From a virus (taxonomy: Duplodnaviria > Caudoviricetes), in IMG/VR virus record IMGVR_UViG_3300048670_001253, positions 1,619-65,618 of that record: a stretch of 64,000 bases of DNA. One strand, written 5' to 3'. Below are positions 1,382 through 47,945 of the stretch, in pieces; the stretch's first letter is position 1, and each line of letters opens with the position of its first letter. The notes under the pieces are model-generated. The model worked only from the letters and a program-made list of their open reading frames with translations. It searched no databases and was not told where the DNA came from. Made by a program: the position numbers and the translations under genes.

Positions 1382-2245
1382 ATGAGCGAAAAATTATTGA
1401 CTATTGGTATGGCCACTTATGATGATTATGACGGAGTGTATTTCTCTTTGCAATCACTTCGAATGTATCATGAGATATGCGCCACCGATCAGGTTGAATT
1501 CTTGGTAATAGATAATAACCCCAAAGGCAAACACGCAGAAACTGTCAAGTCTTTTGTAAACGGTTGGGCCAGAGGAAGATATATTCCTTACGAGGAGAAG
1601 AAAAGCACTGCTGTAAGGAATGAAATATTCAAACAGGCCCAAGGCAAGTATACCATATCAATGGACTGCCATGTCTTGTTTCAAAAGGGCGCAATAGAAA
1701 GTCTCCTCAAATACTACGAACAAAATCCTGATTGTAAGAATATAGTTCAGGGGCCTCTTCTTTATGATGATCTTAGAAATGAATCAACAAGTTTTTCTCC
1801 AGTTTGGAATCATTCCATGTATGGAACTTGGCATACAGATCATGAAAATTTGAAGAAAGGCGAGCCTTTTGAGATCCTAATGCATGGCTTAGGTGTTTTC
1901 TCTTGCGAAACCAAAAATTGGGTTGGATTCAACCAGCACTTCAAAGGATTCGGTGGTGAAGAAGGTTACATACATGAGAAATTCAGAAGAAATGGAGGCA
2001 AAGCAATTTGCATTCCTCAATTAAAATGGGTTCACCGTTTTGGCCGACCCGAAGGTGTCAAGTATCCATTAGTTTTAGAGGATAGAGTTTGGAATTATTT
2101 TGTAGGTTGGCTTGAACTAACATGCAACCCAGATCATGAAATGATTAAGGGAGCATATGATCATTTCAAAGACAAGATACCCGCAGGAAGTATAGATAAA
2201 ATTCTTGAAAATGCCAAGAAAACAGTCTTAGAATCACCAGGCTGA
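1382..2245 (+). CDS. GT2-family glycosyltransferase
   Basis: N-terminal LTIGMATYDD, VIDNN, SMDCH (DxH variant of DxD), GFGGEE acceptor motif. Confidence 0.8.
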   Translation: MSEKLLTIGMATYDDYDGVYFSLQSLRMYHEICATDQVEFLVIDNNPKGKHAETVKSFVNGWARGRYIPYEEKKSTAVRNEIFKQAQGKYTISMDCHVLFQKGAIESLLKYYEQNPDCKNIVQGPLLYDDLRNESTSFSPVWNHSMYGTWHTDHENLKKGEPFEILMHGLGVFSCETKNWVGFNQHFKGFGGEEGYIHEKFRRNGGKAICIPQLKWVHRFGRPEGVKYPLVLEDRVWNYFVGWLELTCNPDHEMIKGAYDHFKDKIPAGSIDKILENAKKTVLESPG

Positions 2246-3421
2246 TGTTGAATACATCTTTCTCCACCTGTTGACTTTATTATCAGAAAGTCCGCAAGGT
2301 GAAGAAACTGCTGGATAATTATTTCTCTCGGCCTGATACATTCCAACTAGATGGGCGATGTCATCAACTTCTCTGGGCTCCCAGCCAGCAGATAGCAGAG
2401 CAAATTTTACCTTTTCCATGGGATTATCTTTTACAACCCAAGCAGAGGTAAGAAATCTGTCGTTGTATGCTTTTTCTGGCACATCTAACGATAAATTATC
2501 CATTGGATAAATTGTATTTATTAGTCCTGTGCTGTTATACATATCTAAATACTTTTTATCATTCACTTCTGGGTTTTCAAGACCAAGAATATATTCTCTT
2601 TTATAATTCTTGTTTACATCGTTTATCTTGGATAAAGATTCAATATGGTCCTCGGGTAATTCTCCATTTCCATATCGAGCTTGCATTCTTAAGTATCTGT
2701 GTGCTGTTACTGGATCTTCATCTACTCTTTTTGAGAACTTTCCAATAGAAACTATTTGTCCGTTCTTTAAATGATGGGCTCCACCGTACACGTCAAGCAA
2801 CTCTGTATTTTCACCTTCACTATTTTTCAAGGGGATGTACATTGCATTTATTGTAAAGTCTCTAGAGGCTGCGTCGTCTTCCAAACTTGATGTTGCAGAG
2901 AAACCATCGACATTTAGATTTCTGTTTTTTATTGATTTTGATAATGGGGATAGTTCATAGCCTTCTCCGTTGACAACAACTGTGAATTCAATTGGTTTAT
3001 TTTTACTGTCTCGTCTGCTTGGAAAAAAACTTTTATTTCCTTTAGGGTTTTGACTTTCTTCAAACCCATTTCCCTTTAATATTAATTTAATTTCACTCGA
3101 TGTTGCATCTGTAACGAGGTCGTAATTTCTTGGAGTCTTTCCTTTCAAGTGATCACGAACAGCTCCGCCAGTCAGGTAGAGAAGCTTCTTCTTGAGCTTT
3201 GGTTCAACTTCTCCATTTGTTTTATCCATTGTTGTATAGCCGACACCTACCTGAGGACTATTTTCAAATGCCTTGACAAGTATTCTTAAATTGGAATGGC
3301 TATCTTTATCGATTACAAATGGTTGAAAATCTTCCGCTCCTTGAGCTTTGGTTAGTTTGACTTTTGAAACTACCGGAATGTTATTCTCTTTGTATAATAT
3401 GTAATCTTGAAATTTTCCCAT
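2234..3421 (-). CDS. CCA-adding/poly(A) polymerase family nucleotidyltransferase with degenerate motifs
   Basis: GGAVRD..L...PRNYDL (NxD instead of DxD), SRDFTINAM, EDPVT (instead of EDxxR). Confidence 0.8.
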   Translation of the reverse strand: MGKFQDYILYKENNIPVVSKVKLTKAQGAEDFQPFVIDKDSHSNLRILVKAFENSPQVGVGYTTMDKTNGEVEPKLKKKLLYLTGGAVRDHLKGKTPRNYDLVTDATSSEIKLILKGNGFEESQNPKGNKSFFPSRRDSKNKPIEFTVVVNGEGYELSPLSKSIKNRNLNVDGFSATSSLEDDAASRDFTINAMYIPLKNSEGENTELLDVYGGAHHLKNGQIVSIGKFSKRVDEDPVTAHRYLRMQARYGNGELPEDHIESLSKINDVNKNYKREYILGLENPEVNDKKYLDMYNSTGLINTIYPMDNLSLDVPEKAYNDRFLTSAWVVKDNPMEKVKFALLSAGWEPREVDDIAHLVGMYQAERNNYPAVSSPCGLSDNKVNRWRKMYSTSAW

Positions 3422-3468
3422 TTTTTACCTTTTGTTGATATTGTTATATATTGTTTAATCTCATTTTT

Positions 3469-3744
3469 TCACACTGAAGGACTTTGTATTCCCAATTTAT
3501 ATAATAAGTAGGAAGCAACAACTACCCAAAATATTTTAACTACAAAGTCAATTAGTTGATCCCAATTCTGTTGCGATCTTGATGTTCTTAGATTTATTCC
3601 TTCCATCTTGATTTCAAATTCTTGAATTTTTTTTGATAAAGAATCAATATCAGACGACATTTCTTTAATTTTATCTTCAAGATGCTCGATTTTATGTTCG
3701 GCCTTCCCTAGATTTCCAGATTGATTTCTTCTTTTTTCTACCAT
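3469..3744 (-). CDS. small coiled-coil protein with C-terminal TM helix (holin/XhlA-like topology)
   Basis: heptad-rich N-terminus, hydrophobic FVVKIFWVVVASYLLY. Confidence 0.45.
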   Translation of the reverse strand: MVEKRRNQSGNLGKAEHKIEHLEDKIKEMSSDIDSLSKKIQEFEIKMEGINLRTSRSQQNWDQLIDFVVKIFWVVVASYLLYKLGIQSPSV

Positions 3745-3793
3745 TTTTTGTTATATGTGTAAACTTTATAGACTTTCACTAATATATATAGTT

Positions 3794-4267
3794 ATGGAAA
3801 ATCAAGATAAAATCATAATAAGCGAAATAGATGACGCCAAAGAGCTAATTCCACAGATGAATGTGGACCTACCATCTATTCAGGGTCAAAATGATCTTTC
3901 TCATATAGTTTCTGATGAAGAACTATCTAGTGTTTATAGTGAAATACTGGACAATATTAGAGAAGATAGAAAACAAATAGACGAATTTATAGGAAATTTT
4001 GCAGATCTGGTAATAAATGAGGGAGACAGCACCAGCGCCAGCAAAGAAGCTCTTGTGAGCCTGGTCAAGATAAAAAGCGATGTAGCGGATAAAATGGCAA
4101 AAATGGCCGATTTGATGACAAGAATAAAATTAAAAGATAAAGACACCTTCCCTAAATACTTAGCAGCAAATCAAAACAATACAATCAATATAAATTCCGG
4201 AAACAATAAGAGACAATTATTAGAAGCAATAAACAAAGCAAAGAAAGAAGCAAAAGATGAAAATTAA
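3794..4267 (+). CDS. hypothetical helical protein
   Basis: ORF track 3755-4267; start moved to ATG 3794, just after TATATATAGTT. Confidence 0.7.
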   Translation: MENQDKIIISEIDDAKELIPQMNVDLPSIQGQNDLSHIVSDEELSSVYSEILDNIREDRKQIDEFIGNFADLVINEGDSTSASKEALVSLVKIKSDVADKMAKMADLMTRIKLKDKDTFPKYLAANQNNTININSGNNKRQLLEAINKAKKEAKDEN

Positions 4268-5564
4268 TACCTTGAATTGGTTTAACGAAGAGCTTGGTAA
4301 TCCCGGTGAGGTAGCCGGTGGTCAACCTCCTGCAGACGCCACTGGCGGTAATCAGGTTGTTATGCAAAACAACAACCCAGAAGTACAACCCGAACAAGCT
4401 CCTGATGAAGCCCAAGAAACAGAGACGGAGCTACCCAAACAAGATTCGCAACAAGATATAGCACAACAGGAACCGCAATCACCCGATGTCCCAGAAGAGC
4501 AAAACGAGACAGAAGATTTTGAAACATGGAAGATGAGCTATTTTAAAGATCTGGTGAAGGGCGATACTAGTCTTTTGTTAAACAATATTCACAAGATAAG
4601 AGATTTTGATCTGGATGTTTATCCAAGAAAGTTCGTCGAAGATAATCTACAGATTCTTTTCTTAAGACAAAATTCAAATATAGAAAAGGTAGGCAAAGAG
4701 GTAAGAAAATCTATAAGACAAGAATTGGATAATAATAACCCATCTGTGTCTTTAGTAAACCATATGTTTACTTCACTTCAAAGTTCTCCTGATTTAACTA
4801 ATGTGTTCATTAAGTTGAAAGGTACTCTTGGAATGAAGAGCGACCTCCACAGAAAATATTTGGCCTCATTATTGGGAGCTGCTCAGGTTGGGAGTGGAGG
4901 CAACTCAGAAGATATTATATACAACGAAAGAACCTACTCTATTAAGGTATCGACAAGATTTAATGAAAAATGGGGAATGATAGATTTAGGAAAATGGTCC
5001 TTAAGAGAAGACGATCCAGAAAGGTTCTTGGAAGATCCTGAATTAAAAAGACTCGAAGAAGGTAGCCCAGAAGAAAGAGATGTTCTTAGAAGAAGAGTTA
5101 TAATGGAAGCTATTGCCGATAACTTTAAACAAAGATCTTTTGTTGTAAATGTTGTTGGAACAGATGGAACTGTTTACTTTTTAGGTTTGGACCTTGGAAG
5201 CTGTCTGAGCACAGCTTATGCAGATGGAAAGCTATCCGTGAGAACCATTCAATCTGAAAATAGCGAAGCCATGATAGGTGACGATGGAAGTGTAGTTCCA
5301 TACGTAGACTTAAAAGTCAAGTATTTATATGATACCGGAGAAGTAGATGAGAATGGATTTCCGAAAAAAGGTGAATCTGATTTCATGGAGAGAATAGATG
5401 GTGTTTTATTTGTAACTGCTCAACTAGATACACTTAAGCAGGCTGCTTCAAGTTTTCCTGGTGTTATTATTAAGGAGCTTCCTTTTAATGGCAACCCCTC
5501 AGACTTGAAAGTAATACAAAGATGTGTGCCTAGCGCTGCTGAAATAATTTTAAGAAACTGTTAA
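4257..5564 (+). CDS. hypothetical protein with acidic/Gln-rich N-terminal linker
   Basis: 435-aa ORF overlapping the upstream stop; N-terminus MKINTLNWFNEE. Confidence 0.75.
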   Translation: MKINTLNWFNEELGNPGEVAGGQPPADATGGNQVVMQNNNPEVQPEQAPDEAQETETELPKQDSQQDIAQQEPQSPDVPEEQNETEDFETWKMSYFKDLVKGDTSLLLNNIHKIRDFDLDVYPRKFVEDNLQILFLRQNSNIEKVGKEVRKSIRQELDNNNPSVSLVNHMFTSLQSSPDLTNVFIKLKGTLGMKSDLHRKYLASLLGAAQVGSGGNSEDIIYNERTYSIKVSTRFNEKWGMIDLGKWSLREDDPERFLEDPELKRLEEGSPEERDVLRRRVIMEAIADNFKQRSFVVNVVGTDGTVYFLGLDLGSCLSTAYADGKLSVRTIQSENSEAMIGDDGSVVPYVDLKVKYLYDTGEVDENGFPKKGESDFMERIDGVLFVTAQLDTLKQAASSFPGVIIKELPFNGNPSDLKVIQRCVPSAAEIILRNC

Positions 5565-5573: not shown

Positions 5574-6080
5574 ATGTATAAATTTTTTGATTATATTAAC
5601 CAATCGGAAATGCAGGCTCATAGAAAACTTAAGATAATAAGTGATCTATTAAAAAGTCAACAAATAAAAAATAAACTATTTAACTCTGATCAAGAGCCAC
5701 ATATTTTTGTTTTTTCGACTAATCCTGACACTTATTTCCAAGGAGTCAGGGTATATCCAATTGCTAATTCTGTGGCATTTAAGGTTCAAAATAAAATAAA
5801 TACTCATCCTTATGGAAAACCATATTTATTAGACTTTGAAAAAATGTATAATAATCTCATGGGTCAAAAAGACGCATCAGAAGAAGATTGTGCTAAAAGC
5901 ATAATCGACTACATATGCACAGAACTTAAAAAGTTCTTTACAATGAGCGCTAAATATCAATATGAAAAAAATCCTGAGAATATCAAACTGATGGTCAGAT
6001 CTCAAGGAACAGACTACTCGACTAAGTTGTTTGGTGGTGCTTCTGGTGACTATTCTTCTAAAGTTTACAACGGGTATTAA
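5574..6080 (+). CDS. hypothetical protein
   Basis: 168-aa ORF in operon-like spacing; N-terminus MYKFFDYINQSE. Confidence 0.7.
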   Translation: MYKFFDYINQSEMQAHRKLKIISDLLKSQQIKNKLFNSDQEPHIFVFSTNPDTYFQGVRVYPIANSVAFKVQNKINTHPYGKPYLLDFEKMYNNLMGQKDASEEDCAKSIIDYICTELKKFFTMSAKYQYEKNPENIKLMVRSQGTDYSTKLFGGASGDYSSKVYNGY

Positions 6081-6083: not shown

Positions 6084-6473
6084 ATGATAAGTCTAAACGA
6101 TTATAAAAATTCTAAAAGTGTTAAGAGTCTAGTACAGAAAATGTTTGAAGCACGCCAAGTTGCTCACGTAATTCACCTTCAAACAAAAAGCTATAGTCAG
6201 CATAAGGCTTTAAATGGTTTTTATGATGGTATTTTAGACCTAGCCGATACTTTTGTTGAAACCTATCAAGGACAATATGGAATACTGAGTGGCTACGGAG
6301 ACGTTAGTATTTCTTCTGATGTTGATATTGAGGAATATCTTCAAGACTGCGCAAAGATATTTGCACTTGGAAGAGATAGTATGAATGATAAAGATACTCA
6401 TCTTAAAAACATTATGGATGAAGTTGTAGCACTAACATACCAGACAATATACAAGATAAAGTATCTAAAATAG
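6084..6473 (+). CDS. ferritin-like four-helix protein (DUF5856-like, common in large myophages)
   Basis: AHVIHLQTKSYSQHKALNGFYDGILDLADTFVETYQGQYG motif. Confidence 0.65.
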   Translation: MISLNDYKNSKSVKSLVQKMFEARQVAHVIHLQTKSYSQHKALNGFYDGILDLADTFVETYQGQYGILSGYGDVSISSDVDIEEYLQDCAKIFALGRDSMNDKDTHLKNIMDEVVALTYQTIYKIKYLK

Positions 6474-6495
6474 TTCCTCCAATTAAAGGAGAAAA

Positions 6496-6945
6496 ATGGA
6501 CCTTATACAGGATGTTAAAAAAGGTAGTCTAATTTCTTTTAGTTACATGTTCCATAAAGCGGGACATGATGCAAATCCAAATGTAATGGTAACTAATGTG
6601 GATTCTTTTTATGTTTGGGGTGTTAATGTTCATTATTTAACATTTCCCTACATAAGAAATCTTTTACAAAAAAATTGTAATAATATTATGTTTGGCTATC
6701 CCAGTATAAAAAGTGATAAGTTTGTAACTTCAGCCTTTAGACAATACAAGAAAAACGGAATAAGATCTTTAAAGAAACTTGATTGTGATTTTGTTCTTAA
6801 TCTACTGGGATCTAGCAGAGCACTAACGCCAGCGGAAGTGGAGGCTATAAGAAATACTGTCAACAACCAAATATCACAAGCTATTAATCAAGTGTCTGCG
6901 TTGAATCCTAATGTTAATTCTAATGTTGAAAGCCCCCAGATTTGA
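6496..6945 (+). CDS. possible T4 gp2-like DNA end-protector homologue
   Basis: G.L..F.Y, D..P, WGVNVHYL, FRQY pattern recalls gp2-like proteins; not searched. Confidence 0.4.
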   Translation: MDLIQDVKKGSLISFSYMFHKAGHDANPNVMVTNVDSFYVWGVNVHYLTFPYIRNLLQKNCNNIMFGYPSIKSDKFVTSAFRQYKKNGIRSLKKLDCDFVLNLLGSSRALTPAEVEAIRNTVNNQISQAINQVSALNPNVNSNVESPQI

Positions 6946-7648
6946 GTTTTGGTCTCAAAACTTTTCTCTTAACATTTTTGAATTTTAATAATTTTTCCCA
7001 ATTGTGTGTGTATGTGTGGAATATTATTGGATCAATATATTCAAAATCATTAGCAATCTCCGGTATTTTCACATGTTCTCTTTTAAAATAATTTTTACTT
7101 ATTTCTTTGTTATCAATTGCTATCTGACTCATTAGAAATTCTTCCCTTACCCACATATTATATTTATCCAACCATCTCCATAGAGCTGGATAAACTTCTT
7201 CTATGTTTTCAAGTTTTTTATTAAAATCTTTATAAATCTTTTTATTTGACCCATTTCTGAATAAAAGAACACCTGAATTTATAGGTCTAAACAACTTAAA
7301 TTCTGCGCTGTAGGACCATCTATTCTCGCATCCTACAATATCTTCTGGGTATTTATTTATTATTTTATCTATATCATCAAATATGAAAGTGTCACTATCT
7401 AAATAAAAAATATTATCGAATTCTAAGTCACTTAAGTGTTGTTTATTTGCCGGAAAGTATTCTGGGTCTATATTTTTTACGTATCTAGTTTCAACCATAA
7501 ATTCTTCTGGGAAGATGGTTTCATTGTGTGTACAAAAACATAAAATTCTTATGCTCTTATTATATTTCCTGAGCATCTTGATGCTATTAAGAGCCATTCT
7601 ATAATAATTTAGATTACCGTTTATTATATAAACCACAACAGAAGTCAT
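6920..7648 (-). CDS. GT-A (GT8-like) nucleotide-diphospho-sugar transferase
   Basis: FYLDSDT (DxD), INSGV, IIFH motifs. Confidence 0.75.
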   Translation of the reverse strand: MTSVVVYIINGNLNYYRMALNSIKMLRKYNKSIRILCFCTHNETIFPEEFMVETRYVKNIDPEYFPANKQHLSDLEFDNIFYLDSDTFIFDDIDKIINKYPEDIVGCENRWSYSAEFKLFRPINSGVLLFRNGSNKKIYKDFNKKLENIEEVYPALWRWLDKYNMWVREEFLMSQIAIDNKEISKNYFKREHVKIPEIANDFEYIDPIIFHTYTHNWEKLLKFKNVKRKVLRPKLKSGGFQH

Positions 7649-7669
7649 GAACTAATTATAGTTCAAATT

Positions 7670-8974
7670 TCAAGGACTTCCACCATCAATTATTTCCCAG
7701 GAAGGAGCAGATCCAATGAACGCCAGAACCGTACCCGGCTCACCTAGTCCTGCATTTGATAGTTGTGCTAGACTTAATGAGTATGGCGTTGCATCTGTTA
7801 TGCCATAGCCTGCTAGAGTCGATGGATTAGACCCTGCTGTGACTCTTCCATAATAGTCCACGGTAACTTTAGAATAAGTACCAGAAATTAATCCACTTAT
7901 TAGAGCCAAATCTATTCCATAAGAAGCAACTACTATTCTGCCTGAAGTTCCTCTGGCTGAAAAAGTGTTGTCGGTTCTAATTAAACCATTTCCTGCTGTC
8001 AATTGACTAGCACTGCTGAACAAGCTAAAGGATAGATCAGTCACTCCCAGAGAGACAGTATCATTGGTTGTCAACAGCCACCCAGTATCTAAATTAACGG
8101 TTCCCTCTGATACAAAGACAAAAAGTCCAGTTGTCACACTATCGTTTGAATTAGCATCAGACGATCTCGACCAAGCAGTTGTTTTTACATCATATATACC
8201 ATTCTCGTAAGCTAGTATTTGATTTTTTACAAGGATTCTATTTCCTGTGACCAACGATACTCCATCTATCGTTTGGAGTCCTGTTAAATTTATATCAGCA
8301 ATTGTCGCAACTCGGACAGATTGCTTTATATCAAAACCTTTTCTTTGATTGTCAACATATTCTTCTGTTGCTATTTTTTTATTATTAGAATAAAAACTCC
8401 CCGATGATCTTATGTCTCCTACCGAAGTTAATGACCCAATCAGAGATAGATTTCGCACACCAGATAAGTTAAAATTATTATCAACAAATAAAGGTTTGTT
8501 TATTGTTGCAGTTCCTGGTGTCACATTATTAAGATAATTTAATTCCGTTGCAGTGGTATTTACAGTTATTGATCCAATTCTAAAAGTGCCAGTTATATCC
8601 AGAACCCCAGCAAATGTGTTGCTATATGAGGAGGGAAATATATTGTTTTGATCTTTTCTTGCGTATCTAGAGAGAAAAATTGTTGATAAATTTGTTAAAA
8701 TTTCTTCATTATTTATGTAAACTTTACCTGCACCATTGGGTTTTAAAAATATGTCACCGTTTGTGTTTTCTGAGCTTATCGTATTGCCATTTATATAAAT
8801 ATTATCAAATTGTTTAGAGGAATAAGGCAGACTGTTCCATCGAGATATTCCATTCCCTATTTTCATACGGCTAGTATCTAATTCTAATCCCTGCTCCCCT
8901 TCTAGAAGTATTGGGTCATCAATGGTCCAATTGGAAGAAAGTGCCCTTTTTAGCTGAATTAATGTATCGCTCAT
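7670..8974 (-). CDS. tail fibre/virion structural protein with Mtd-like N-terminal domain
   Basis: IQLKRA...P.L.EGE.GLELDT..MKIGNG...WNSLPY; KQSVRVAT...IDGV.L..G.RILVKNQ...ENGIY phage fibre block. Confidence 0.75.
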   Translation of the reverse strand: MSDTLIQLKRALSSNWTIDDPILLEGEQGLELDTSRMKIGNGISRWNSLPYSSKQFDNIYINGNTISSENTNGDIFLKPNGAGKVYINNEEILTNLSTIFLSRYARKDQNNIFPSSYSNTFAGVLDITGTFRIGSITVNTTATELNYLNNVTPGTATINKPLFVDNNFNLSGVRNLSLIGSLTSVGDIRSSGSFYSNNKKIATEEYVDNQRKGFDIKQSVRVATIADINLTGLQTIDGVSLVTGNRILVKNQILAYENGIYDVKTTAWSRSSDANSNDSVTTGLFVFVSEGTVNLDTGWLLTTNDTVSLGVTDLSFSLFSSASQLTAGNGLIRTDNTFSARGTSGRIVVASYGIDLALISGLISGTYSKVTVDYYGRVTAGSNPSTLAGYGITDATPYSLSLAQLSNAGLGEPGTVLAFIGSAPSWEIIDGGSP

Positions 8975-9038
8975 TGTTTCCCTTCAGATTTTAAAATATA
9001 TAGTTTTATTTTCGTCTAAAATAAACTATATTTAAGTT

Positions 9039-12538: not shown

Positions 12539-12543
12539 TTAAC

Positions 12544-14347: not shown

Positions 14348-14668
14348 ATGAACTTCTATAAACTAAACAAACTGATGAATGAAATGGCACCTCCCGCTGT
14401 GGGCCTACAGCAGCCAATGACAGCCAATGCAGCCAATGACGTAGCTCCTGGTCAAAACACACAACAGCAGCAACCTGATGCAAACCTGAAGCAGGACATG
14501 AAGAAAAATCTTGCCAAGATCTCCACCAGTCTTGGCGAAAAGGGTAACAAGTACCAAAAGCTGATTCAGTTTGTGGGAAGAAATCCTGAGATGCTCACTC
14601 TTCTTGATGAGTTATTGGGAGATGTTGGCGATATGAGAGGCACGACCTTTCAAGCCAAATACAACTAA
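14348..14668 (+). CDS. hypothetical protein
   Basis: ATG follows CATATATAAGTTATT. Confidence 0.65.
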   Translation: MNFYKLNKLMNEMAPPAVGLQQPMTANAANDVAPGQNTQQQQPDANLKQDMKKNLAKISTSLGEKGNKYQKLIQFVGRNPEMLTLLDELLGDVGDMRGTTFQAKYN

Positions 14669-15173: not shown

Positions 15174-15617
15174 TTATTTTTTTATGTGCTGTATACTCCA
15201 GATACCACCTTCACCTGAATCTGGGACAAAATCTTTATTTTTTGTATAAGAAGGTTTGCCTGGTATGTTTTTAATACTCCAGGGTTCACCTTCCCCATAC
15301 TTTGCAGAAAATCCATCTTTATTGCTTTTTGGTGGGCTAGATTCGCCTTTTATTTTCTTTATATCCCACAAACCAGACTCGCCAGCATTTAATTTTGTAT
15401 TTGATTTGCCTGGAATGTGTGTTATATCAAAAGACGTTTTATCTGTTGAGTTATAGATTCTATCGTCAACAGATAGGTAGAATATAGAATCAGCACTTCT
15501 CGTTAGATACCACTGAGGGGGATACAATCCTATACCACCGTATCCCAATGGGTATAATCCCGTTTTACTACCGGGATTTGAGCCTTCTTCGATGAGCCAG
15601 TCTTTAAAATTTAGCAT
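15174..15617 (-). CDS. hypothetical protein with four internal repeats
   Basis: repeats FDITHIPGK / WDIKKIKGE / WSIKNIPGK / WSIQHIKK; N-terminus MLNFKDWLIEE. Confidence 0.7.
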   Translation of the reverse strand: MLNFKDWLIEEGSNPGSKTGLYPLGYGGIGLYPPQWYLTRSADSIFYLSVDDRIYNSTDKTSFDITHIPGKSNTKLNAGESGLWDIKKIKGESSPPKSNKDGFSAKYGEGEPWSIKNIPGKPSYTKNKDFVPDSGEGGIWSIQHIKK

Positions 15618-15992: not shown

Positions 15993-16805
15993 ATGAGTTT
16001 TAAACTTTGGCTTATCGAATCTAGTCTCAGGGACTTACTAAAAGATGTTCCTCAAAATCCTGATCACCACGCTGAGGGCGATGTTTTTAAACATACCAAG
16101 ATGGTTAGAAACTCACTCGATATAGCAAAAAGATTGCTTAAAAAAGAGCAAGGAATGTTTCCTTTTTCAAAAATAAACTTTGATCTATCTGATAGAGAAG
16201 AAAAAATACTCAAAATATCTGCTTGGCTTCATGATATAGGAAAGGCAAGCGCTACAACCGTTGACGGCGTGCACTGGAAGGATGCCCTCAGCCATTCGGG
16301 TAAGATATCAGCTCATCAACACGATCAACCACACCATTATGAGCCAATGATAGATAAACTTGGCTCAATGTGGGGCACTATAATCTCGGCGCTAACCCCA
16401 GATGAAATACAAGATATATATTTTTGTATTGATTATCATATGAGTCTTAGTAATGGATCTTTTTCCAAGAAAGTATCTTCTATTATTTTTGATCAAGATG
16501 GAAATTATAAGAATGAAAGAAAGATCAAGCTTCTTCTTTATATTATAACAATGGATTGGGCCGGTAGAATATCAGGAAACAAAGGTGGAGAAAATGGCGC
16601 CCTTGATGCAATCCAAGGATTTAAAAATTCAGCACATAAATTATTAGAAAAAAATAAAGCTATCGACAGCAGAAAAAAGGTTTCTATAGATGATCCAAAA
16701 GAATTTATTTTATCTTTAAAAGGTCGTCCAATAGAAATTATTAAAAAGGCTTTTCAGAACAAATTTAACAGAGAAATCTCAGAAGAAGAGATTTCTTCTA
16801 TTTGA
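15993..16805 (+). CDS. stand-alone HD-domain phosphohydrolase of the type fused to multifunctional CCA enzymes
   Basis: PQNPDHHAEGDVFKHT, AWLHDIGK, YHM, MDWAGR. Confidence 0.85.
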   Translation: MSFKLWLIESSLRDLLKDVPQNPDHHAEGDVFKHTKMVRNSLDIAKRLLKKEQGMFPFSKINFDLSDREEKILKISAWLHDIGKASATTVDGVHWKDALSHSGKISAHQHDQPHHYEPMIDKLGSMWGTIISALTPDEIQDIYFCIDYHMSLSNGSFSKKVSSIIFDQDGNYKNERKIKLLLYIITMDWAGRISGNKGGENGALDAIQGFKNSAHKLLEKNKAIDSRKKVSIDDPKEFILSLKGRPIEIIKKAFQNKFNREISEEEISSI

Positions 16806-28746: not shown

Positions 28747-29097
28747 ATGAACGACATATTAAAATTAGCTGGTTTGACTGAACAAGTTGAAAAATTCAAC
28801 CACTTCGCAGAAAAAAGATTTGAAGGAGCAAAAAAAATATCTGATGCGGCTGAAGATAAAGGCGGCCCAGCTCTTCTTACACATTATCACTTTGCTGTTA
28901 AATTACCTTATTATAAAAAAGCAGCAGAAGGAAAAATGGATTTTGAAAAAAGCAAGAAAGAATACAAAGAGCTTTGTAAAAAACTTCATTCAATGATGGA
29001 CAAAATAGAAGATGTAAACCAAAAAACTTTTCAAGAACTACTCGGTAAAATGGAAGTTATAGGTGAACTATTAATCTACGAAAATAATAAAAAATGA
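28747..29097 (+). CDS. hypothetical protein
   Basis: AAAAGGA RBS, upstream TATATA. Confidence 0.7.
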   Translation: MNDILKLAGLTEQVEKFNHFAEKRFEGAKKISDAAEDKGGPALLTHYHFAVKLPYYKKAAEGKMDFEKSKKEYKELCKKLHSMMDKIEDVNQKTFQELLGKMEVIGELLIYENNKK

Positions 29098-29915
29098 ATT
29101 TTAGAGATTTTATAAACGAGTCGCCTGTAACTAACTTTGAACTAATGGGTCAATGGGGACCTGAAGCAAAAAGAAAATACGGATACAACAAACAAGACAC
29201 AGGAATCTTGGAAAATCCAAAAGCTGTGGAAAAAATTCACAGACATTGGAGCAACAGTAAGAGTAATTTTGAATTCTATTTTTTAAGAAGCTACAAAGCA
29301 AGCAAGCACGTTGAAGTTGGACAGGTAGCCCCCGAATGGGTCAAAGAAAATTTAGAAGTTGATATAAAGCCAAAAGAAGATGCCATAACTGTTATATTTA
29401 CAAATAATACAGGCGCAGAGAAAATAGCTATGACAGCTTGGACTTTGGCCCACAGGTTAGGTCACGCAATTAGACGAGACAAAACTTTCGAAAAATATTT
29501 CAATGACGAAATAATAAGAGACTTTGATGAAATATTACAAAATGTATATGGAATAGAAACCAATAAATATAACAAAAACTATTCTGATTATGAGAAACAA
29601 AGAAAAGCAATTTTCTTAGCTGTTGGCACAATGAAAAGTGCAAGAGATAATATTCTTAGAAACAGCAATGAGTTCATGTATGAGTTATTGGCCCAATATA
29701 TCATATCTGGTAAAATAAAATTTAACAGCCTACCTAGAAGTCTTGTGATAGATAGAAAGATGGCTTGGGGCAGACCAAACTATAGAATGAAGAATACGGT
29801 AGATGAAATAGCATATAGAGAATATAATGAAATGCTACAAAGCAATGCTGTTAAGTATGAATATAATCTAGACACTATTTTCAATGGTCTTGAGGGATTG
29901 ATGTTTGTGATGTAA
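29094..29915 (+). CDS. hypothetical protein (HxxGH motif)
   Basis: N-terminus MNFRDFINES; LAHRLGHA. Confidence 0.7.
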   Translation: MNFRDFINESPVTNFELMGQWGPEAKRKYGYNKQDTGILENPKAVEKIHRHWSNSKSNFEFYFLRSYKASKHVEVGQVAPEWVKENLEVDIKPKEDAITVIFTNNTGAEKIAMTAWTLAHRLGHAIRRDKTFEKYFNDEIIRDFDEILQNVYGIETNKYNKNYSDYEKQRKAIFLAVGTMKSARDNILRNSNEFMYELLAQYIISGKIKFNSLPRSLVIDRKMAWGRPNYRMKNTVDEIAYREYNEMLQSNAVKYEYNLDTIFNGLEGLMFVM

Positions 29916-32963: not shown

Positions 32964-34199
32964 TTATATACTGTTTTTGATATAATTATTATACTCATCA
33001 TCATTCATTCTATCACTTATTTCTTTGCCTTTTAGGTGCATGTAATCTTCTGATTTTGTGACCTGTTGGTAGTTTAAGAAATATTTTATTTCATCATCTA
33101 ATCCGCTTATCTTGCCAAACTCCACAAAAGATTCTCTGAGTTTATCGCTTAGATTATCTCTCATTCTAATCATTCTTATTATATTAGATTTGTTTAAGTT
33201 ATAGGCAACTCTAAGAATAAAAGCAACTGTATCGGATATTTCATTGGAATACTTTAGTTCATTTAATTTTGATCTTAATTTATTTGGATCATTATTTCTG
33301 AAAATAAAACTCATCGTTGCGATTGGATCACGAGAATTTATCTCGGAACTTAAATCAATCCCCAGCCCAGGGAAAATTGTTGATAATAAACCCAGAGCTT
33401 TATAATTCATCATGTAGGTTCTAACATTTTTACACTTACTCAAACCCGATAAAAATTCATTTGCAATTCTTTCTCCGCTTACTCCATTTAAATCTTTAAA
33501 TTTCCCCACAGCACTTATTGTTTTTTGATCTAAATGATTTGTAATAATATCATCATTGAATCTTGAGAAGAATCTAACAAGTCTTAATACTCTAAGTTTA
33601 TCTTCTCTGAACCTTTCCATAGGATCCCCGACACTTCGGACAGAAAGATTCCTTATATCCTTGAAACCCTCTCCTTCTCCCTTGTCATCTAAATTATAAT
33701 CACGGATTTGCTTGTCATCTAAATCGTAAAAGAGTGCATTTATGTTAAGATCTCTGCGTTTTGCATCCAAACTTGGCGTGCTGTAAGAAACGCTATCTGG
33801 TCTTCTTCCATCTCCTTTTTCTGGATCGTAGAATTCAGTTCTAAATGTTGCTATCTCAAATTCTTTTCCATTTATAATTGCACTTATTACACCAAAACTC
33901 TCTCCTTTTGGAAAAACTTTTATTCCATTATCAATAGCTTCTTTGGAACTTAGTATTTTGATCACCTGATCGGGTGCTTGGTCAGTTGCAAGATCAACAT
34001 CCTTTGGATTATATGGAATATGTTTCTGATGGAATATATGATATAGATAATCTCTTATTGCGCCACCAACTGCGTACAATTTTGCCCCAAATTTCTTGAA
34101 TAGTTGACTTAAAATATCAACTTCCGAGGGCATTGGGATTGATGCACTCATTGCATGATACTGTTCTTCCTCTTTTAGTAGCCAATTTTTGAATTTCAT
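32964..34199 (-). CDS. cca: tRNA nucleotidyltransferase (class II CCA-adding enzyme family), catalytically intact
   Basis: VGGAIRD, PKDVDLAT (DxD), EIATFRTE...GRRP loop, RRDLNINAL, EDKLRVLR; start moved to MKFKNWLLKEE (alternative 34217). Confidence 0.85.
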   Translation of the reverse strand: MKFKNWLLKEEEQYHAMSASIPMPSEVDILSQLFKKFGAKLYAVGGAIRDYLYHIFHQKHIPYNPKDVDLATDQAPDQVIKILSSKEAIDNGIKVFPKGESFGVISAIINGKEFEIATFRTEFYDPEKGDGRRPDSVSYSTPSLDAKRRDLNINALFYDLDDKQIRDYNLDDKGEGEGFKDIRNLSVRSVGDPMERFREDKLRVLRLVRFFSRFNDDIITNHLDQKTISAVGKFKDLNGVSGERIANEFLSGLSKCKNVRTYMMNYKALGLLSTIFPGLGIDLSSEINSRDPIATMSFIFRNNDPNKLRSKLNELKYSNEISDTVAFILRVAYNLNKSNIIRMIRMRDNLSDKLRESFVEFGKISGLDDEIKYFLNYQQVTKSEDYMHLKGKEISDRMNDDEYNNYIKNSI

Positions 34200-38711: not shown

Positions 38712-38719
38712 ATAGTATT

Positions 38720-40012
38720 ATGAGTTTTAAAGTTTGGCTTGAAAGAAGCGAAGTATCTTCACCAGCGTTATTTGAAAAAGTTAAACAGCTAAAAGGTCTG
38801 TACTCTGGTGTTCATTTTTCAAAAACAGACTTCTTAAGTTTAAATCCAAGTCCAAGCCATTTTGATCCAATAGGGGTTTATGTTTTTCCAAAAGACTATG
38901 TTTTGGGGAATGGACTGTTTCGAAACAATATGTTTGCAAGCTATCCATATGTATTCCTAATCGAACCCTCAGAGAGCGCCAGAGTTTTAAATCTCGATAT
39001 GGATAAAAACACTGCTGGTAAACTTTTAAGTGATATGGGAATAGATAAAAGTCTTTTAGATAGCGATGAAGTTTATCATAATTCAGGCAGTAATTCTCCT
39101 GGTCATCTTTTCTGGGGAGTTTTAGAGAAGATAAGAAATGAAAAAAGATTACCCAGAAACTCTTCTTGGAACAGCTTCTTTAAAAAGACTGGTTATAATG
39201 TTTTATATGATCCTGGACTGGGTATAATTCATAGTAACGAACCTAATCAAGTTGTTTATTTGGATCCTAAGTCATATAGAGTTGTAGATTTAATAACCAA
39301 TGATAGTGGCTATAAAATACTATATTCTATAGCTAAAAACTTCCCTGAATACCAACTATTTAAGAAAAAATCAAGAGGATGGTACGGAGAAGGCAAAACA
39401 GAGATAACACTTAAAGATAAAGATAAATATTCAACAATAGAATTATCCAACTCCAAAGAATATCCAAACACCGTGTGGTGTGTGGTGTATGGGTATACAA
39501 ATGAATTCAAAAAAGAGTTTTCAATAAAGAGTAATGACGACTTGGCAAAAGCAATTCAAGAAATTAAAGATTTTCTTAAAACAGAAAAAAAGGAAAGAAG
39601 TCTTTCGTTATCAAGCGACTATAGTAAAATGGAAAATATAGCCAATACATATGTCCTTAAATATGATAAAGAATATCCAGCAATAATAGAAAAGAACTAT
39701 AAAAATAATACAAAGTTTATTATTAATTATATGCCGAGTAAAAAAGAAATAGCAATGCGAGTTAAAAAAGGATATTCACCCGGTTCATATTATAATTTCT
39801 CTTACCACGTAGACTTAATATCTTCAGAGTCCACCAGTCCAGAAGAAGATGTGAAATCTCTAATCGAGAAGATTAAAAATAAAATAAAAGATGATATAAA
39901 AGTTTTTAGATTATCTTCAAATCCTAGTGCGCAATACCAAGCAGAGGATGCTTTAAAGTTTGTTGAATTTCTTGAGAATAGAGTCTTTATTAAAAGAAAA
40001 CAATCAATATGA
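38720..40012 (+). CDS. hypothetical protein, possible ADP-ribosyltransferase-like N-terminal fold
   Basis: N-terminus MSFKVWLERSE; GVHFS, GVYVFP, NEPNQVVYL pattern; not searched. Confidence 0.5.
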   Translation: MSFKVWLERSEVSSPALFEKVKQLKGLYSGVHFSKTDFLSLNPSPSHFDPIGVYVFPKDYVLGNGLFRNNMFASYPYVFLIEPSESARVLNLDMDKNTAGKLLSDMGIDKSLLDSDEVYHNSGSNSPGHLFWGVLEKIRNEKRLPRNSSWNSFFKKTGYNVLYDPGLGIIHSNEPNQVVYLDPKSYRVVDLITNDSGYKILYSIAKNFPEYQLFKKKSRGWYGEGKTEITLKDKDKYSTIELSNSKEYPNTVWCVVYGYTNEFKKEFSIKSNDDLAKAIQEIKDFLKTEKKERSLSLSSDYSKMENIANTYVLKYDKEYPAIIEKNYKNNTKFIINYMPSKKEIAMRVKKGYSPGSYYNFSYHVDLISSESTSPEEDVKSLIEKIKNKIKDDIKVFRLSSNPSAQYQAEDALKFVEFLENRVFIKRKQSI

Positions 40013-43026: not shown

Positions 43027-43083
43027 AAAAAAATAACTATTTTATTATATATAAAGTAAAACCAACCAACACTCAGAGGAAAT

Positions 43084-45363
43084 ATGAAACTAGAATTTAA
43101 AGATTATCTAAAAGAAATGGCAATAGCCCAGTTCGGAAGAGTTAAGGGAAAACATATCAACGATATCGATATAGGCTATGCAGGCTGGATGTTAAATAAT
43201 ATCAAAGATGGCGCAAGTAATTTTAGTTTTCTAGCAGATGATGGTTCAGGAAAACTCTCAAAGAAACAAATAGAAGATGGTATCAATATAATATTGTCTG
43301 GTAAAAAAGTAGCACCAACTAGTGTTGGGAAACCAGTTACCGCTCTGGGGGCTGCGACGACCACACCAGAACCACCAAAATCATTAGAACCCCAAAAACA
43401 AGCAAAAGATCCCAGTGAGTACATGATCCCTGAAGATAAGATCAGTGAGTATCAAAAATCTATTGAAGAAACTTTTTCCAAGACTAATCAACATTTAGCA
43501 ATAAATGCATTGGCAGGCACAGGTAAAACCACAATACTAAAACACTTGGCTGCTAAGTTTTCAGGTGGTAAAAAATGGCTTTATCTTGTATTTAATAAAA
43601 AGAATGCACAAGAAGCAACTTCCGGGGATAAAGCATTTCCTCCTAATGTTGAAACAATGACAAGTCATAAATTTTTAGCAAGAGTTCTGAATGCCACGAG
43701 AAGAGACCGTCCTGAGGTTCTTCCAAAAAGTGGAGTTGGCGGCCAAGCTAGTAGTGATGAAGGTCAAGATTTTGGAAACAAAATTACAAAGATACTTGAT
43801 CATCATTGGTTCTTTAATTTGGCCAACGGTATGCAAAAATCACCAAGCTTCCCAGGAAGAGGATTGGGATATAACTATCAATTTATTCGCTTTAATAAAA
43901 AGAAGAATGTTGAAGAAGTAGCCTTTGTGGTTAAATCAAAGATTAATAGATTAGTAGGACTTGCAAAGAATTTTGCCATCAATCCATCTGATCCAAGCGC
44001 TGAACAAAAAATAGAAGAGATAATGAGAAAGTATGATATAGATGGAACTTTATCATTAAAAAATAAAGGAGATGATGACGAACCAATGGTCGGAGAACCA
44101 AATTTTACTAAACAATTTGTTCTTCTTTCATTGGAAATATTAAAAGCAACTGCTCCTCATGGCACTGTTGGCGATTCAAATTTAGACACTGCACAAGATT
44201 TCGATGATATTATTTGGTGGCCCACACTTCACCCAGATAAGATGGTTTGGCCGAATAAAAGTAATTTTGAAGTCGCTCTAGTCGATGAAGTGCAAGACTT
44301 TAACGAAGCTCAAAAAGTAATGTTAGAGAACTTAGCCAAGAATGGAATAAGAATAATAATAGTAGGAGATCCTCGTCAAGCAATCTATAGATTCAGGGGA
44401 GCAGATGCTAAAGGCTTCTCTAATATTGAAGCTCTTTTAGGATCTTCTTCAAGAGGAGTTTCATCCCATGAACTTCCCGTTAATTATAGAAGTGGCAAAA
44501 AAATAATAGATTTTGTAAATCAAAAAACACATGTAAAAAACCTGAAGTCAGGAAGAGATCACGAAGGAGAAGTAAATCCAGATGCTACCTACGAAGGAGT
44601 TATGTCGGATATAGACAATGAATGGAAAAAAGGTAGCTTAGAACAAGAGACTGCTTTTATTGCAAGAAATAATGCTCCTTTACTTAAGGCTGCTTTGCAT
44701 TTGTTAAAGAATCATATTCCTTTTACTATTGTTGGTAAAGACTTTTCAACTGAGGTCTTAAACTTTATCTATAGAATTGTCGGAAATGATAAAATAGCAA
44801 TAGGAAAATTCAATGTTGGTAAATTTCCAGTAGAGGATTTTGATCAAACAATGAGAAGTTACGTTATTGCAAAAGAAGATAAGTATGAAAACAAGAAGGA
44901 TAAAGAAAAATATCTTGATGAATTAAATCAACTTTACTCATCGATATCTAGTCTTTTAGAATATGTCAGACAAAATGGTTACAAGAATCCTTTAACTAAA
45001 TCTGATATTCATACCGTGGGTGATTTATGCTCATACATCGCCCAAATATTTAAAGGATTAGACCCAGACGCAAGTGACAAAGACGCTTCTGCTTATGATC
45101 GTATTGATAAGAAGAAAAATGTTATTCTAACAACGGCTCATAAATCAAAGGGATTAGAGTTCGAAAGAGTTAACATACTTGACGATGAACAATTCCCAGC
45201 GGGTGACTCCTATGATCCTGATGATGAAGAAGAGGAGCAAGAGCATAATGCAAAGTATGTCGCTTATACTAGGGCCACACATGCACTAAATATAACTAGT
45301 GGTGAGGAAGACAAAGGAAAGAAAAAAGGTGGCAGGAAAAGATTAAGCCATCCTGATGGTTGA
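43084..45363 (+). CDS. UvrD/Rep-like SF1 helicase with N-terminal DUF3820-like domain
   Basis: ALAGTGKTT, VDEVQD, VGDPRQAIYRFRGA, TAHKSKGLEF, YVAYTRA; N-terminal FGRVKGKHINDIDIGY..WML. Confidence 0.92.
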   Translation: MKLEFKDYLKEMAIAQFGRVKGKHINDIDIGYAGWMLNNIKDGASNFSFLADDGSGKLSKKQIEDGINIILSGKKVAPTSVGKPVTALGAATTTPEPPKSLEPQKQAKDPSEYMIPEDKISEYQKSIEETFSKTNQHLAINALAGTGKTTILKHLAAKFSGGKKWLYLVFNKKNAQEATSGDKAFPPNVETMTSHKFLARVLNATRRDRPEVLPKSGVGGQASSDEGQDFGNKITKILDHHWFFNLANGMQKSPSFPGRGLGYNYQFIRFNKKKNVEEVAFVVKSKINRLVGLAKNFAINPSDPSAEQKIEEIMRKYDIDGTLSLKNKGDDDEPMVGEPNFTKQFVLLSLEILKATAPHGTVGDSNLDTAQDFDDIIWWPTLHPDKMVWPNKSNFEVALVDEVQDFNEAQKVMLENLAKNGIRIIIVGDPRQAIYRFRGADAKGFSNIEALLGSSSRGVSSHELPVNYRSGKKIIDFVNQKTHVKNLKSGRDHEGEVNPDATYEGVMSDIDNEWKKGSLEQETAFIARNNAPLLKAALHLLKNHIPFTIVGKDFSTEVLNFIYRIVGNDKIAIGKFNVGKFPVEDFDQTMRSYVIAKEDKYENKKDKEKYLDELNQLYSSISSLLEYVRQNGYKNPLTKSDIHTVGDLCSYIAQIFKGLDPDASDKDASAYDRIDKKKNVILTTAHKSKGLEFERVNILDDEQFPAGDSYDPDDEEEEQEHNAKYVAYTRATHALNITSGEEDKGKKKGGRKRLSHPDG

Positions 45364-46130: not shown

Positions 46131-46194
46131 AAATCCTCCACGCCTTCCTTGGCGAAAATGTTATTCTATCGAACAGAAATTAAAGATGAAGATT

Positions 46195-47472
46195 TTAGGT
46201 CAAATTCTTCATTAGCCCAATTACTTTGTCAAAAGCCGCTACATTATTTTTTCGAAGAGCTACAAGTTGTTCCATCAAGCCGAAAACAACATTCTCAGAA
46301 AGATGACTTGAGGTCTTTGGCTCATTACTCAAATTTTTAGCAATCGAATTCTGAATACTGGTATGGACTACTACAGATTCTTTCATAACGGGCAGCTCAA
46401 GCTGACGATCGATGATCACTTCATCTTTGACTGCTTTGACTGTTAGGTTATCTCTTTGACTAATCTCCTTAATGTGTTGCTTTATCTTCTCTTTGATGTA
46501 TTGTATTGGGTCTTCTGACACAATAGAATTTTTCCACCAGCATTTAACGTCAACTGATTGAAGACCGATAGAAACAAAAGTGTTATTATTTTTTGTGTTC
46601 TTTGTATATTCTTTTGCAACAATTCCATTTTTTTCCCTACCGGCTAGGAATTCATCACCGCCTTCTAGTGTTCTAACTATCTCATTGGCAATATGACCCG
46701 CACCATGACTCCAGTTATTAATAATAATATTTTCCACATTGTGATTACTGTTCTTGTAGACCGCACTAATATCTCTTAGTAGGGCTGTTGTAGGGGCTTC
46801 GATCTTAGGTTTCTTCAAAACTTTAAGTGAATAGATCTGGCGATAGTAGTACAGGTAATGAGCAGTTAGGGATAAATTCTCACTGATCCATCCCAGTGCA
46901 TCAGTCATTGTATTTTTTATATTAACTTTCTTATTTGACATCGTCATTCCTTTATTGTTTAAATTTAAATTGTTTAAGTTGCCGTTGATCGCATTATAAA
47001 TAATGTCTTTAATCTTGTCAACATCTTTCAATAAAGAAAACTCTTTAGAATGTTCGGTACTTATCTGGCGTGCATAATACGGCTTCCCGACGCCATATAT
47101 TTTTTCAATTTTATAATTTTCAATTACATCATGCGAATATATCAAAGATCTGACACATGGGGCGTTTAATACAACTTCTAAACAATTCTTTCTTACGACT
47201 CTTCTTCCGTAAAAATCAACAGTATTATACGGGAATTTATTCACCCACTTCGGAGTTTTTCTTCTTTCAACTTCTATGAGTAAATTCTTCTCAGATCCTG
47301 GATCGCTTATAATGAAATCTACTCTTTCTACCCCATGTGGATGCCTCACAACATTGAGATTCATTTCCTTGCATATTCGTTTCAAGAATTCATGGAATCT
47401 CTTTTCCCCCACATTCCCATATGCTAATCTTTTTTTGTTTATTTTCTCTCTATAATATTTTTTATTTCTCAT
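46195..47472 (-). CDS. protein with N-terminal PD-(D/E)xK nuclease-like domain
   Basis: GE..F, VDFII, LLIEVERR. Confidence 0.55.
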   Translation of the reverse strand: MRNKKYYREKINKKRLAYGNVGEKRFHEFLKRICKEMNLNVVRHPHGVERVDFIISDPGSEKNLLIEVERRKTPKWVNKFPYNTVDFYGRRVVRKNCLEVVLNAPCVRSLIYSHDVIENYKIEKIYGVGKPYYARQISTEHSKEFSLLKDVDKIKDIIYNAINGNLNNLNLNNKGMTMSNKKVNIKNTMTDALGWISENLSLTAHYLYYYRQIYSLKVLKKPKIEAPTTALLRDISAVYKNSNHNVENIIINNWSHGAGHIANEIVRTLEGGDEFLAGREKNGIVAKEYTKNTKNNNTFVSIGLQSVDVKCWWKNSIVSEDPIQYIKEKIKQHIKEISQRDNLTVKAVKDEVIIDRQLELPVMKESVVVHTSIQNSIAKNLSNEPKTSSHLSENVVFGLMEQLVALRKNNVAAFDKVIGLMKNLT

Positions 47473-47504
47473 GACATATGAGAGTAATTGTCATATATAA
47501 AAAT

Positions 47505-47945
47505 ATGAAAAACTTCAAACACTGGCTAGAAAACAATCAAATAGTATTATCTGGCTGGTTATCCCCCAGTGGAAGATTCTATGAATGCAAAAGAAGTATC
47601 TTTGATCATTTGGGCGTAATAGAAAATACACCCGAAATAAGAAACTCCTTGCCAGATTGGTTTGAAAAGAAAATAAAACAACTAAATCAGTCAAAAGAAA
47701 CTAGCCAGGAACTGATGAGAAATGGCGAACATCCTGAATGGCACTCTTATGATATGCTCCACGATAGTATTGAGGAAGCTGTTTATGATGAAATGTATAA
47801 AAAAGGATACCTAAGAGTAGCACAAAATCAAGATGTTGTTTATTTTGAAGGAAGTTCAAATGGAATTAAAAACTTATACCAAAAAGCCAAAGATCTAGCT
47901 GAATCACATGGTAAAACAGCAAATTTCCAGAAAATAAATGTTTAA
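47505..47945 (+). CDS. hypothetical protein
   Basis: MKNFKHWLENN after CATATATAAAAAT; GWLSPSGRFY, H motif. Confidence 0.7.
   Translation: MKNFKHWLENNQIVLSGWLSPSGRFYECKRSIFDHLGVIENTPEIRNSLPDWFEKKIKQLNQSKETSQELMRNGEHPEWHSYDMLHDSIEEAVYDEMYKKGYLRVAQNQDVVYFEGSSNGIKNLYQKAKDLAESHGKTANFQKINV

Follow-up and report, generated by a model that had tools for sequence, protein, structure and literature searches.

In bacteriophage T4, a capsid-targeting sequence (CTS) stands at the start of the internal proteins (IPs) IPI, IPII, and IPIII and of the Alt propeptide, and the prohead protease gp21 removes it (Mullaney & Black 1996; PMC9026906, PMC3012670, PMC5694885). For IPIII, the first 10 residues suffice for packaging; mutagenesis assigned targeting mainly to residues 4 and 7 and processing to residues 8 and 10 (PMC9026906). 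In the T4 genome (NC_000866), IPII and IPIII start with MKTYQEFIAE, and IPI starts with MKTFKEFTST. Here, we consider a similar N-terminal peptide, hereafter called the tag, that is carried by a set of proteins encoded in a 64,000-nucleotide (nt) stretch of viral DNA (the window), which makes up 64 kb of a 65.6-kb contig (G000; IMG/VR record IMGVR_UViG_3300048670_001253, positions 1,619 to 65,618). We posit that the tag is likely to be this lineage's version of the T4 CTS and that it would mark cargo to be packed into the head, cut, and injected.

The contig is a fragment (completeness of ∼14% by CheckV), and its reading leans on relatives. Two IMG/VR contigs, G001 (323 kb, 64% complete) and G002 (251 kb, 50% complete), are close relatives with 82 to 90% amino acid (aa) identity to G000 across the proteins compared; based on their size and completeness, the full genome of this uncultured T4-like phage should be about 0.5 Mb. 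G004 is a more distant relative (262 kb; 55% guanine plus cytosine [GC]) whose CCA-adding enzyme is 46% identical, and G005, a complete 353-kb phage with 32% GC and a T4-type head, was used as a negative control.

How does the tag compare with what has been described? As in T4, a peptide of about 10 residues heads unrelated proteins, with aromatic residues at positions 4 and 7, I or L at position 8, and Glu near position 10. The MKTFKEF of IPI is closely paralleled by MKTFNEFIEQ in G001, and head genes of the gp21, gp22, and gp23 types are present in the lineage. The differences lie in number and detail: T4 tags about three to five small basic proteins plus Alt, whereas the lineage tags about 35 to 40 families that include enzymes of 400 to 970 aa, favors Trp as the second aromatic residue, often places Glu directly after Leu, and has its own box 4 to 7 nt before most of the ATGs. 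Furthermore, the T4 CTS is known from experiment, whereas the lineage tag is known from sequence alone.

The polymorphic internal-protein loci of the T-even phages (PMC9026906, PMC3012670) offer a second likeness, that of a fixed leader joined to swappable cargo in an arms-race toolkit. Those loci, however, are compact and hold small anti-restriction cargo, whereas the tags of this lineage are dispersed along hundreds of kilobases, where they also head RNA-repair and helicase enzymes. The huge phages phiKZ, 201phi2-1, and SPN3US (PMC5694885, PMC7411985) also load many head proteins and enzymes, which a gp21-related protease cuts after Glu. They differ in their long propeptides (often >100 residues) with no common short tag, in belonging to another head lineage, and in having a virion RNA polymerase. 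The cargo-loading peptide of encapsulins likewise routes unrelated enzymes into an HK97-fold shell by means of a short peptide, but that peptide is C-terminal and uncleaved, and it works without DNA co-packaging or delivery to another cell.

The tag in the window and its relatives

A sequence-only reading of the window had proposed that 11 proteins share a T4 CTS-like N-terminal peptide. All 11 N-termini are present, but only nine fit the strict motif, which we define as M-x(1-4)-[F/Y]-x-x-[F/W/Y]-[L/I/V/M/F] followed by Glu; the genes at 4257 and 14348 are weak members that lie outside it. The 11 genes are as follows.

2234..3421, minus strand: CCA/poly(A)-polymerase-family nucleotidyltransferase paralogue, 395 aa; tag MGKFQDYILYKE, codons 3386-3421
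4257..5564, plus strand: acidic 435-aa protein, no family; weak, doubtful tag MKINTLNWFNEE, then a low-complexity acidic stretch
5574..6080, plus strand: 168-aa protein, no family; tag MYKFFDYINQSE, strict motif
14348..14668, plus strand: 106-aa basic protein; weak tag MNFYKLNKLMNE, then a Pro/Gln/Ala-rich linker
15174..15617, minus strand: 147-aa protein of a GLYP motif family; tag MLNFKDWLIEE, strict motif, then a Gly/Pro-rich stretch
15993..16805, plus strand: probable HD-superfamily phosphohydrolase, 270 aa; tag MSFKLWLIES
29094..29915, plus strand: 273-aa protein, no family; tag MNFRDFINES, strict motif
32964..34199, minus strand: CCA-adding tRNA nucleotidyltransferase, 411 aa from Met 34199; tag MKFKNWLLKEE
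38720..40012, plus strand: 430-aa viral protein with weak ADP-ribosyltransferase (ART)-fold leads in its N-terminal domain; tag MSFKVWLERSE
43084..45363, plus strand: UvrD/PcrA-type superfamily 1 helicase, 759 aa; tag MKLEFKDYLKE, opening an N-terminal extension of ∼120 aa
47505..47945, plus strand: 146-aa protein, no family; tag MKNFKHWLENN, strict motif; ATATATA box at 47493-47499, 5 nt before the ATG

For two of these genes, the tag-bearing internal Met is probably the true start: 47505 rather than the longest-open reading frame (ORF) start at 47478, based on the position of the box, and 34199 on the minus strand rather than 34271 or 34217, where the homologues begin at the tag. A further tagged gene, not in the original list, lies about 0.5 to 1 kb upstream of the window start (G000:607-1098); it encodes 163 aa beginning with MKTFLNWLEA and has tagged homologues in G001 and G002.

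The consensus of the tag is M-K-[T/N/S/K]-F-K-[E/D]-W-L-E-x-N-E, with a core made up of one aromatic residue at position 3 or 4, a second three positions on, then L/I/V, and Glu within one to four residues. Across 51 nonredundant tags, the first aromatic residue falls at position 4 in 33 and at position 3 in 15; the second, present in all 51 by construction, is W in 29, Y in 14, and F in 8. L, I, or V comes next in 48 of the 51, and Glu peaks one, two, or four residues further on, mostly at residues 8 to 12.

Several counts place this pattern at true protein starts. In the six reading frames of the 65.6-kb contig, F[KR].[WFY][LI] has 25 matches, 8 of which lie 2 to 4 residues past a real start Met. 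In G001, a looser regular expression (regex) with Glu is found at 23 of 477 first Mets and at 3 of 1600 internal Mets, a roughly 25-fold enrichment. A scan of spaced residue triplets that was blind to the motif ranked F..WL first at the N-termini of G001, with about 34% GC (14 observed, 0.23 expected, p=9e-21), and again at those of the 55%-GC G004 (10 observed, 0.15 expected, p=1e-15). The 32%-GC G005 gave background counts only for the tag, and its CCA and UvrD homologues do not carry it.

The carriers had been described as unrelated, and past their first 15 residues they do show no mutual similarity (blastp, 1e-3), with three exceptions: orthologues across contigs, the two CCA paralogues, and the small GLYP-motif family. 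Once hydrophobic regex matches were filtered out as a separate class, removing these false positives, about 35 to 40 tagged families were counted across G000, G001, and G002. The features of Sec or lipoprotein signal peptides (a hydrophobic h-region of at least 7 residues after a basic n-region) were not found in the tag, which is amphipathic and acidic.

At the motif, synonymous codons track genome-wide usage: TTT/TTC stand at 35:11 versus 71:29% and GAA/GAG at 13:5 versus 75:25% genome-wide, Lys codons are likewise genome-like, and Leu is written with five different codons. Thus, selection acts on the peptide. Because the tag is present in the 55%-GC G004 and missing from the 32%-GC G005, AT-richness does not explain it. 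The signal acts at the protein level, is lineage specific, and is no by-product of AT-richness.

The tag is also an add-on that is dispensable for the cargo fold. The peptide is absent from solved cellular CCA enzymes. Alignments of solved CCA enzymes and poly(A) polymerases to the CCA enzyme of the window begin only at its residues 14 to 30, and those of the CCA enzymes begin at residues 26 to 30. Of 120 metagenomic CCA homologues (45 to 100% identity, many on 200- to 600-kb contigs), the majority retain F[KR]x[FW][LF]E; roughly 10 begin immediately past the tag. AlphaFold draws the first 8 to 10 residues as a short loose N-terminal helix. In the AlphaFold2 model of the CCA enzyme, the predicted local distance difference test (pLDDT) is 91 overall and 58 for residues 1-10, versus at least 83 in blocks 2 to 12; in that of the 38720 protein, it is 87 overall and below 50 for residues 1-8. 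A comparison of tag retention between G004 and G001 yielded 31 homologous pairs, too few for a statistic, with the CCA enzyme as the one clear shared tagged cargo.

More distant CCA enzymes present a different N-terminus. A tblastn search of the phage collection with the CCA enzyme returned only 31 to 34% matches, in three uncultured phages of 595 to 642 kb, and these align from residue 23 or 41 onward and thus lack the tag. In a distant phage CCA clade (35 to 37% identity; L086 = G005:152431-153585, L084-L131), the N-terminal peptide is MK-x-x-I-K-Q-I-L-R-E-G-L, and at least two unrelated ORFs of G005 (183438-183701 and 189861-190445) start with MK[AT]LIKKLL[KR]EGL. On this shared cargo, the peptide may serve as an alternative tag specific to its lineage.

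Candidate cleavage site, head genes, and upstream box

A hydrophobic-x-Glu site of the kind cut by gp21 follows within ten residues in 25 of 32 tagged G001 proteins versus 86 of 445 untagged ones (p=1e-11). Such sites occur in 78 to 91% of the tagged proteins of G000, G001, and G002 and in 57% of those of G004, versus 17 to 20% of untagged N-termini. Applied to T4, the regex with Glu picks out 5 of 271 ORFs, namely, IPII, IPIII, gp61.1, and two chance-like matches. The gp61.1 ORF (L051; NC_000866 18966-19130) encodes a 54-aa hypothetical protein that starts with MKTFKEFIKED; it belongs to the early region, with the primase gene as its neighbor.

The machinery that would act on such a tag is encoded by the relatives. 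Peptidase_S77 (E∼1e-28) and Gp23 (E∼1e-88 to 1e-90) domains are found in G001, G002, and G004. The S77 protease of G001 and G002 (E∼2e-28; phrog_207, E=2e-49), encoded at 289323-290012 in G001, has GELDHP and SSRG blocks that align with T4 gp21. The same two contigs encode an acidic scaffold-like protein of 298 aa, which has 16 [LIV]xE sites, as well as a capsid protein of the gp23 type (E∼1e-90). In the latter, an L-I-N-E lies near the position of the LTE65 cut site of T4 gp23 and is consistent with a corresponding cut site, on a loose N-terminal alignment.

Small tagged ORFs flank the head module of G001, with the starts MKTFNEFIEQ, MLNFKTFLEN, MKSFQEYLKD, MKSFNEWLNE, and MKLFSEWIVD, and one small tagged ORF stands divergently beside the putative portal gene in both G001 and the distant G004. 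None of these small head-module ORFs gave a family match. In T4, two small genes, the prohead-core genes 67 and 68, lie between the portal gene 20 and the protease gene 21.

The tag was also said to follow late-type TATATA boxes in several cases. Defined as (C/T)ATATATA(A/T) or ATAAATA within 40 nt upstream, a box precedes 18 of 30 tagged G001 genes versus 34 of 447 others (p=8e-12), usually ending 4 to 7 nt before the ATG. In the window, boxes do precede several tagged genes, but there is none at 4257 or 29094. Untagged genes for baseplate, tail-like, and RCC1-repeat proteins have the box equally close by, and there are tagged genes with ordinary Shine-Dalgarno (SD) leaders (43084 in the window; 284295, 286997, and 294104 in G001); hence, the tag is no consequence of a near-leaderless organization.

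The box ends 4 to 8 nt before many ATGs of tagged and structural genes alike (untagged examples are 19027 and 29881-30333 on the minus strand), a spacing which implies that the corresponding mRNAs would be near-leaderless transcripts from a late-type promoter. Among the genes behind a TATATA-type box are two in G001 that encode RCC1-type repeat proteins of 1486 and 1395 aa (6455-10915 and 12241-16428), which are probably fibre or other surface proteins of the virion.

Cargo and setting of the tagged genes

The nucleotidyltransferases and the helicase of the sequence-only reading have matching profile domains. The gene at 2234, read as a degenerate nucleotidyltransferase, matches Pfam PolyA_pol (E=4e-19; domain from residue 81); its tag is kept in the G001 and G002 orthologues, and an ATATATA box lies 23 nt upstream (3445-3451). 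The identity of the CCA-adding enzyme is borne out by PolyA_pol (E=3e-22) and phrog_2244 (E=3e-36). In the 43084 protein, the UvrD-helicase domain begins at residue 128; neither the extension nor the tag is present in its homologue from the tag-less G005, and a box 30 nt upstream (43047-43053) is followed by an SD-like AGAGGA.

The HD hydrolase is a less settled case: the 15993 protein has the HH.EGD..H.T and LHDIGK motifs, but the HDIG match is sub-threshold (E=0.0085). It matches phrog_6931 (1.7e-7), has no sequence match in the PDB, and lies behind a box 7 nt upstream (15979-15985). In two further IMG/VR contigs, L080 and L087, ORFs with a CCA match begin with a tag and an HD N-terminus (MK[ST]FQ[QR]WIIESSLR…HHPEG) closely like that of the stand-alone 15993 protein, and so tagged HD-CCA fusions exist. 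Because a tag and an HD domain head these CCA-containing ORFs, the HD protein can be linked to tRNA 3′-end repair.

For the 38720 protein, nearly all of 48 homologues keep the tag, down to 31% identity, and an ATAAATA box lies 5 nt upstream (38708-38714). H32, Y54, and E174 are invariant in its N-terminal domain (residues ∼17-195). Fold comparisons of this domain gave Atlas ART-PolyVal at 0.85 (TM 0.63 by row) and VIA Z scores of 7.4 to the cyanophage A4 pre-ejectosome and 5.2 to MbcT. A Pfam scan of 40 homologues was negative, Foldseek gave nothing below 1e-3, and the VIA Z scores are middling. These weak but concordant matches give an ART fold as a lead only; if it is true, the protein would parallel Alt, the packaged ADP-ribosyltransferase of T4.

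The window proteins without a family number seven, two of them only weakly tagged; searches of Pfam, PHROGs, and NCBIfam returned nothing for 4257, 5574, 15174, 29094, 38720, and 47505. The 4257 protein has an isoelectric point of 4.6. The tag of the 5574 protein is identical in its G001 and G002 orthologues. The 14348 gene has an ATATATA box 7 nt before its ATG (14334-14340), and its protein gave a sub-threshold Rad23 match only. Translation of the 29094 gene is coupled to that of the ORF upstream, and its protein has a single Atlas lead to a putative metalloprotease cluster (0.91). The gene at 15174..15617 on the minus strand has a TATAGATA box 5 nt upstream (15623-15630) and small tagged relatives in G001. 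Just past the tag, its protein is rich in Gly, Tyr, and Pro with the motif G-L/I-Y-P, as are those encoded at G001:56441-56632, G001:161389-161604, and G004:88471-88716; these small tagged proteins may form a family of abundant internal proteins. Extra tagged cargo in the relatives includes an SNF2 helicase and an AAA_33 kinase, with the P-loop domain directly past the tag; AAA_33 is the kinase fold of polynucleotide kinases (PNKs), and we call the protein a PNK-like kinase.

The tagged genes lie within window positions 1-48,000, where GC is 32 to 39%, genes are long, and the content includes glycosyltransferases, tail-fibre and baseplate-like proteins, a subtilase-bearing 1093-aa protein, the two CCA-family nucleotidyltransferases, and the UvrD helicase. 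The regex matches 9 of 54 ORFs before 48.4 kb, and its one match among the 44 ORFs beyond is a false positive. Past ∼48 kb (∼48000-64000), GC rises from ∼34% to 39 to 48%, and dense small minus-strand ORFs follow one another with AAGGAAC-type ribosome sites and a recurrent GTACGGT upstream; this array holds no genuine tag carrier.

Competing explanations and what the tag would mean

In the mechanism that we propose, the tagged genes would be transcribed late from the TATATA-type box that mostly lies 4 to 7 nt before the ATG. The amphipathic tag helix would dock each protein onto the scaffolding core during prohead assembly, a gp21-type prohead protease would cut past the Glu that follows a hydrophobic residue and free the mature protein in the head, and the cargo would exit with the DNA at the next infection. 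On the strength of the sequence comparisons, the capsid probably takes up the tagged proteins, which would then be delivered alongside the DNA; we infer docking, cleavage, packaging, and ejection as the steps of that route. Among the explanations considered, a T4-type CTS, as the sequence-only reading had suggested, is the best supported, and it has come through every in silico test capable of overturning it.

Several observations weigh against this explanation. The window's own contig, a ∼14% fragment, has no head genes, and we therefore infer the prohead protease from the relatives; a 9-kb megablast of the phage collection found no cultured or near relative. T4 gp61.1 has a near-perfect CTS-like start, yet it is not annotated as a virion protein, and so CTS resemblance alone is no proof of packaging. 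The position of Glu is variable, and W-L-E is commoner than L-x-E, so that the protease would have to accept an aromatic side chain at P3. The tagged share of the genes, about 7%, far exceeds that of T4, and the tagged set includes large helicases, for which replication might seem a more natural setting than entry. The box, finally, is a candidate late promoter by analogy with the T4 TATAAATA.

Could the tag instead dock proteins to some other common partner, such as a phage chaperone, a replication or repair hub, or a membrane-associated assembly site, with the likeness to the CTS arising by convergence? A short amphipathic helix bearing two aromatic residues evolves readily; the UvrD and SNF2 helicases, the two CCA-family enzymes, the HD protein, and the PNK-like kinase all act on nucleic acids and could cooperate; gp61.1 is a CTS-like protein not known to be packaged; and packaging in this lineage is itself a deduction from sequence. 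Such a partner, however, would leave unexplained the Glu present after the hydrophobic pair in 78 to 91% of cases, the small tagged ORFs that two distant lineages have inside their head modules, and the box held in common with structural genes, and no candidate partner was found. We regard this alternative as unlikely. A conserved RNA element, or a set of favored first codons in near-leaderless late mRNAs, would also place a constant sequence at the start of these genes, and with the box mostly ending 4 to 7 nt before the ATG, codons 2 to 9 would indeed be among the first transcribed. But synonymous sites at the motif are free, and the same peptide appears at 55% GC, which together rule out an explanation at the nucleotide level; SD-led tagged genes exist, and many box-proximal genes are untagged, which rules out a reading based on leaderless translation. 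An RNA-level origin is therefore very improbable.

It is just as hard to credit the tag as a leader for an enzyme that modifies or degrades its carrier, be it a maturase like those of ribosomally synthesized and posttranslationally modified peptides (RiPPs) or a host or phage protease that reads a timed N-degron. Radical_SAM (PF04055) and SPASM (PF13186) domains were found in none of five records (G000, G001, G002, G004, and G005, four of them incomplete), in which the controls matched, and a radical-SAM leader was rejected on that basis; the tag lacks a pattern of Cys, Ser, or Thr such as these substrates typically show, and nothing supports a degron. As for chance, the coding part of the window is 32 to 35% GC; the proteins of so AT-rich a genome abound in F, K, N, I, L, and E, and starts of the form MK- are frequent there. 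Composition would have to account for 14 occurrences where 0.23 are expected, for the enrichment of first over internal Mets, for a tag that is present at 55% GC and missing from the 32%-GC G005, and for the low yield of the same regex in T4, where three of the five matches are CTS-like; its probability is negligible.

If the tag is a T4-type CTS, what is it for? More tentatively, and with rather less than even confidence, we speculate that the tagged proteins form an "injectome" of 35 to 40 members that can be read from sequence: a tRNA-repair kit (CCA-adding enzyme, HD phosphohydrolase, and PNK-like kinase), two helicases, and an ART-fold effector. Delivered with the DNA, this set would neutralize tRNA-cleaving and other immediate host defenses before phage gene expression, and new cargo would be recruited by means of a portable 5′ cassette of box, ATG, and tag. 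A literature search found no description of the lineage tag or of CTS-tagged tRNA enzymes in huge phages. Work on T4 established the principle of a CTS paired with gp21 as early as the 1990s (PMC9026906, PMC3012670), so the advance lies in the scale and in the tRNA-repair and helicase cargo, not in the principle.

Short natural tags of this kind would be of use for loading foreign proteins into large capsids, and the rule of aromatic residues at 4 and 7, L or I at 8, and then Glu could serve to forecast which effectors T4-like phages inject. Should the tag function as in T4, the injected set of a huge uncultured phage would become readable from its genome. Here, that set would contain tRNA-repair enzymes and helicases instead of small anti-restriction proteins, and counter-defense against tRNA-targeting immunity would begin at DNA entry.

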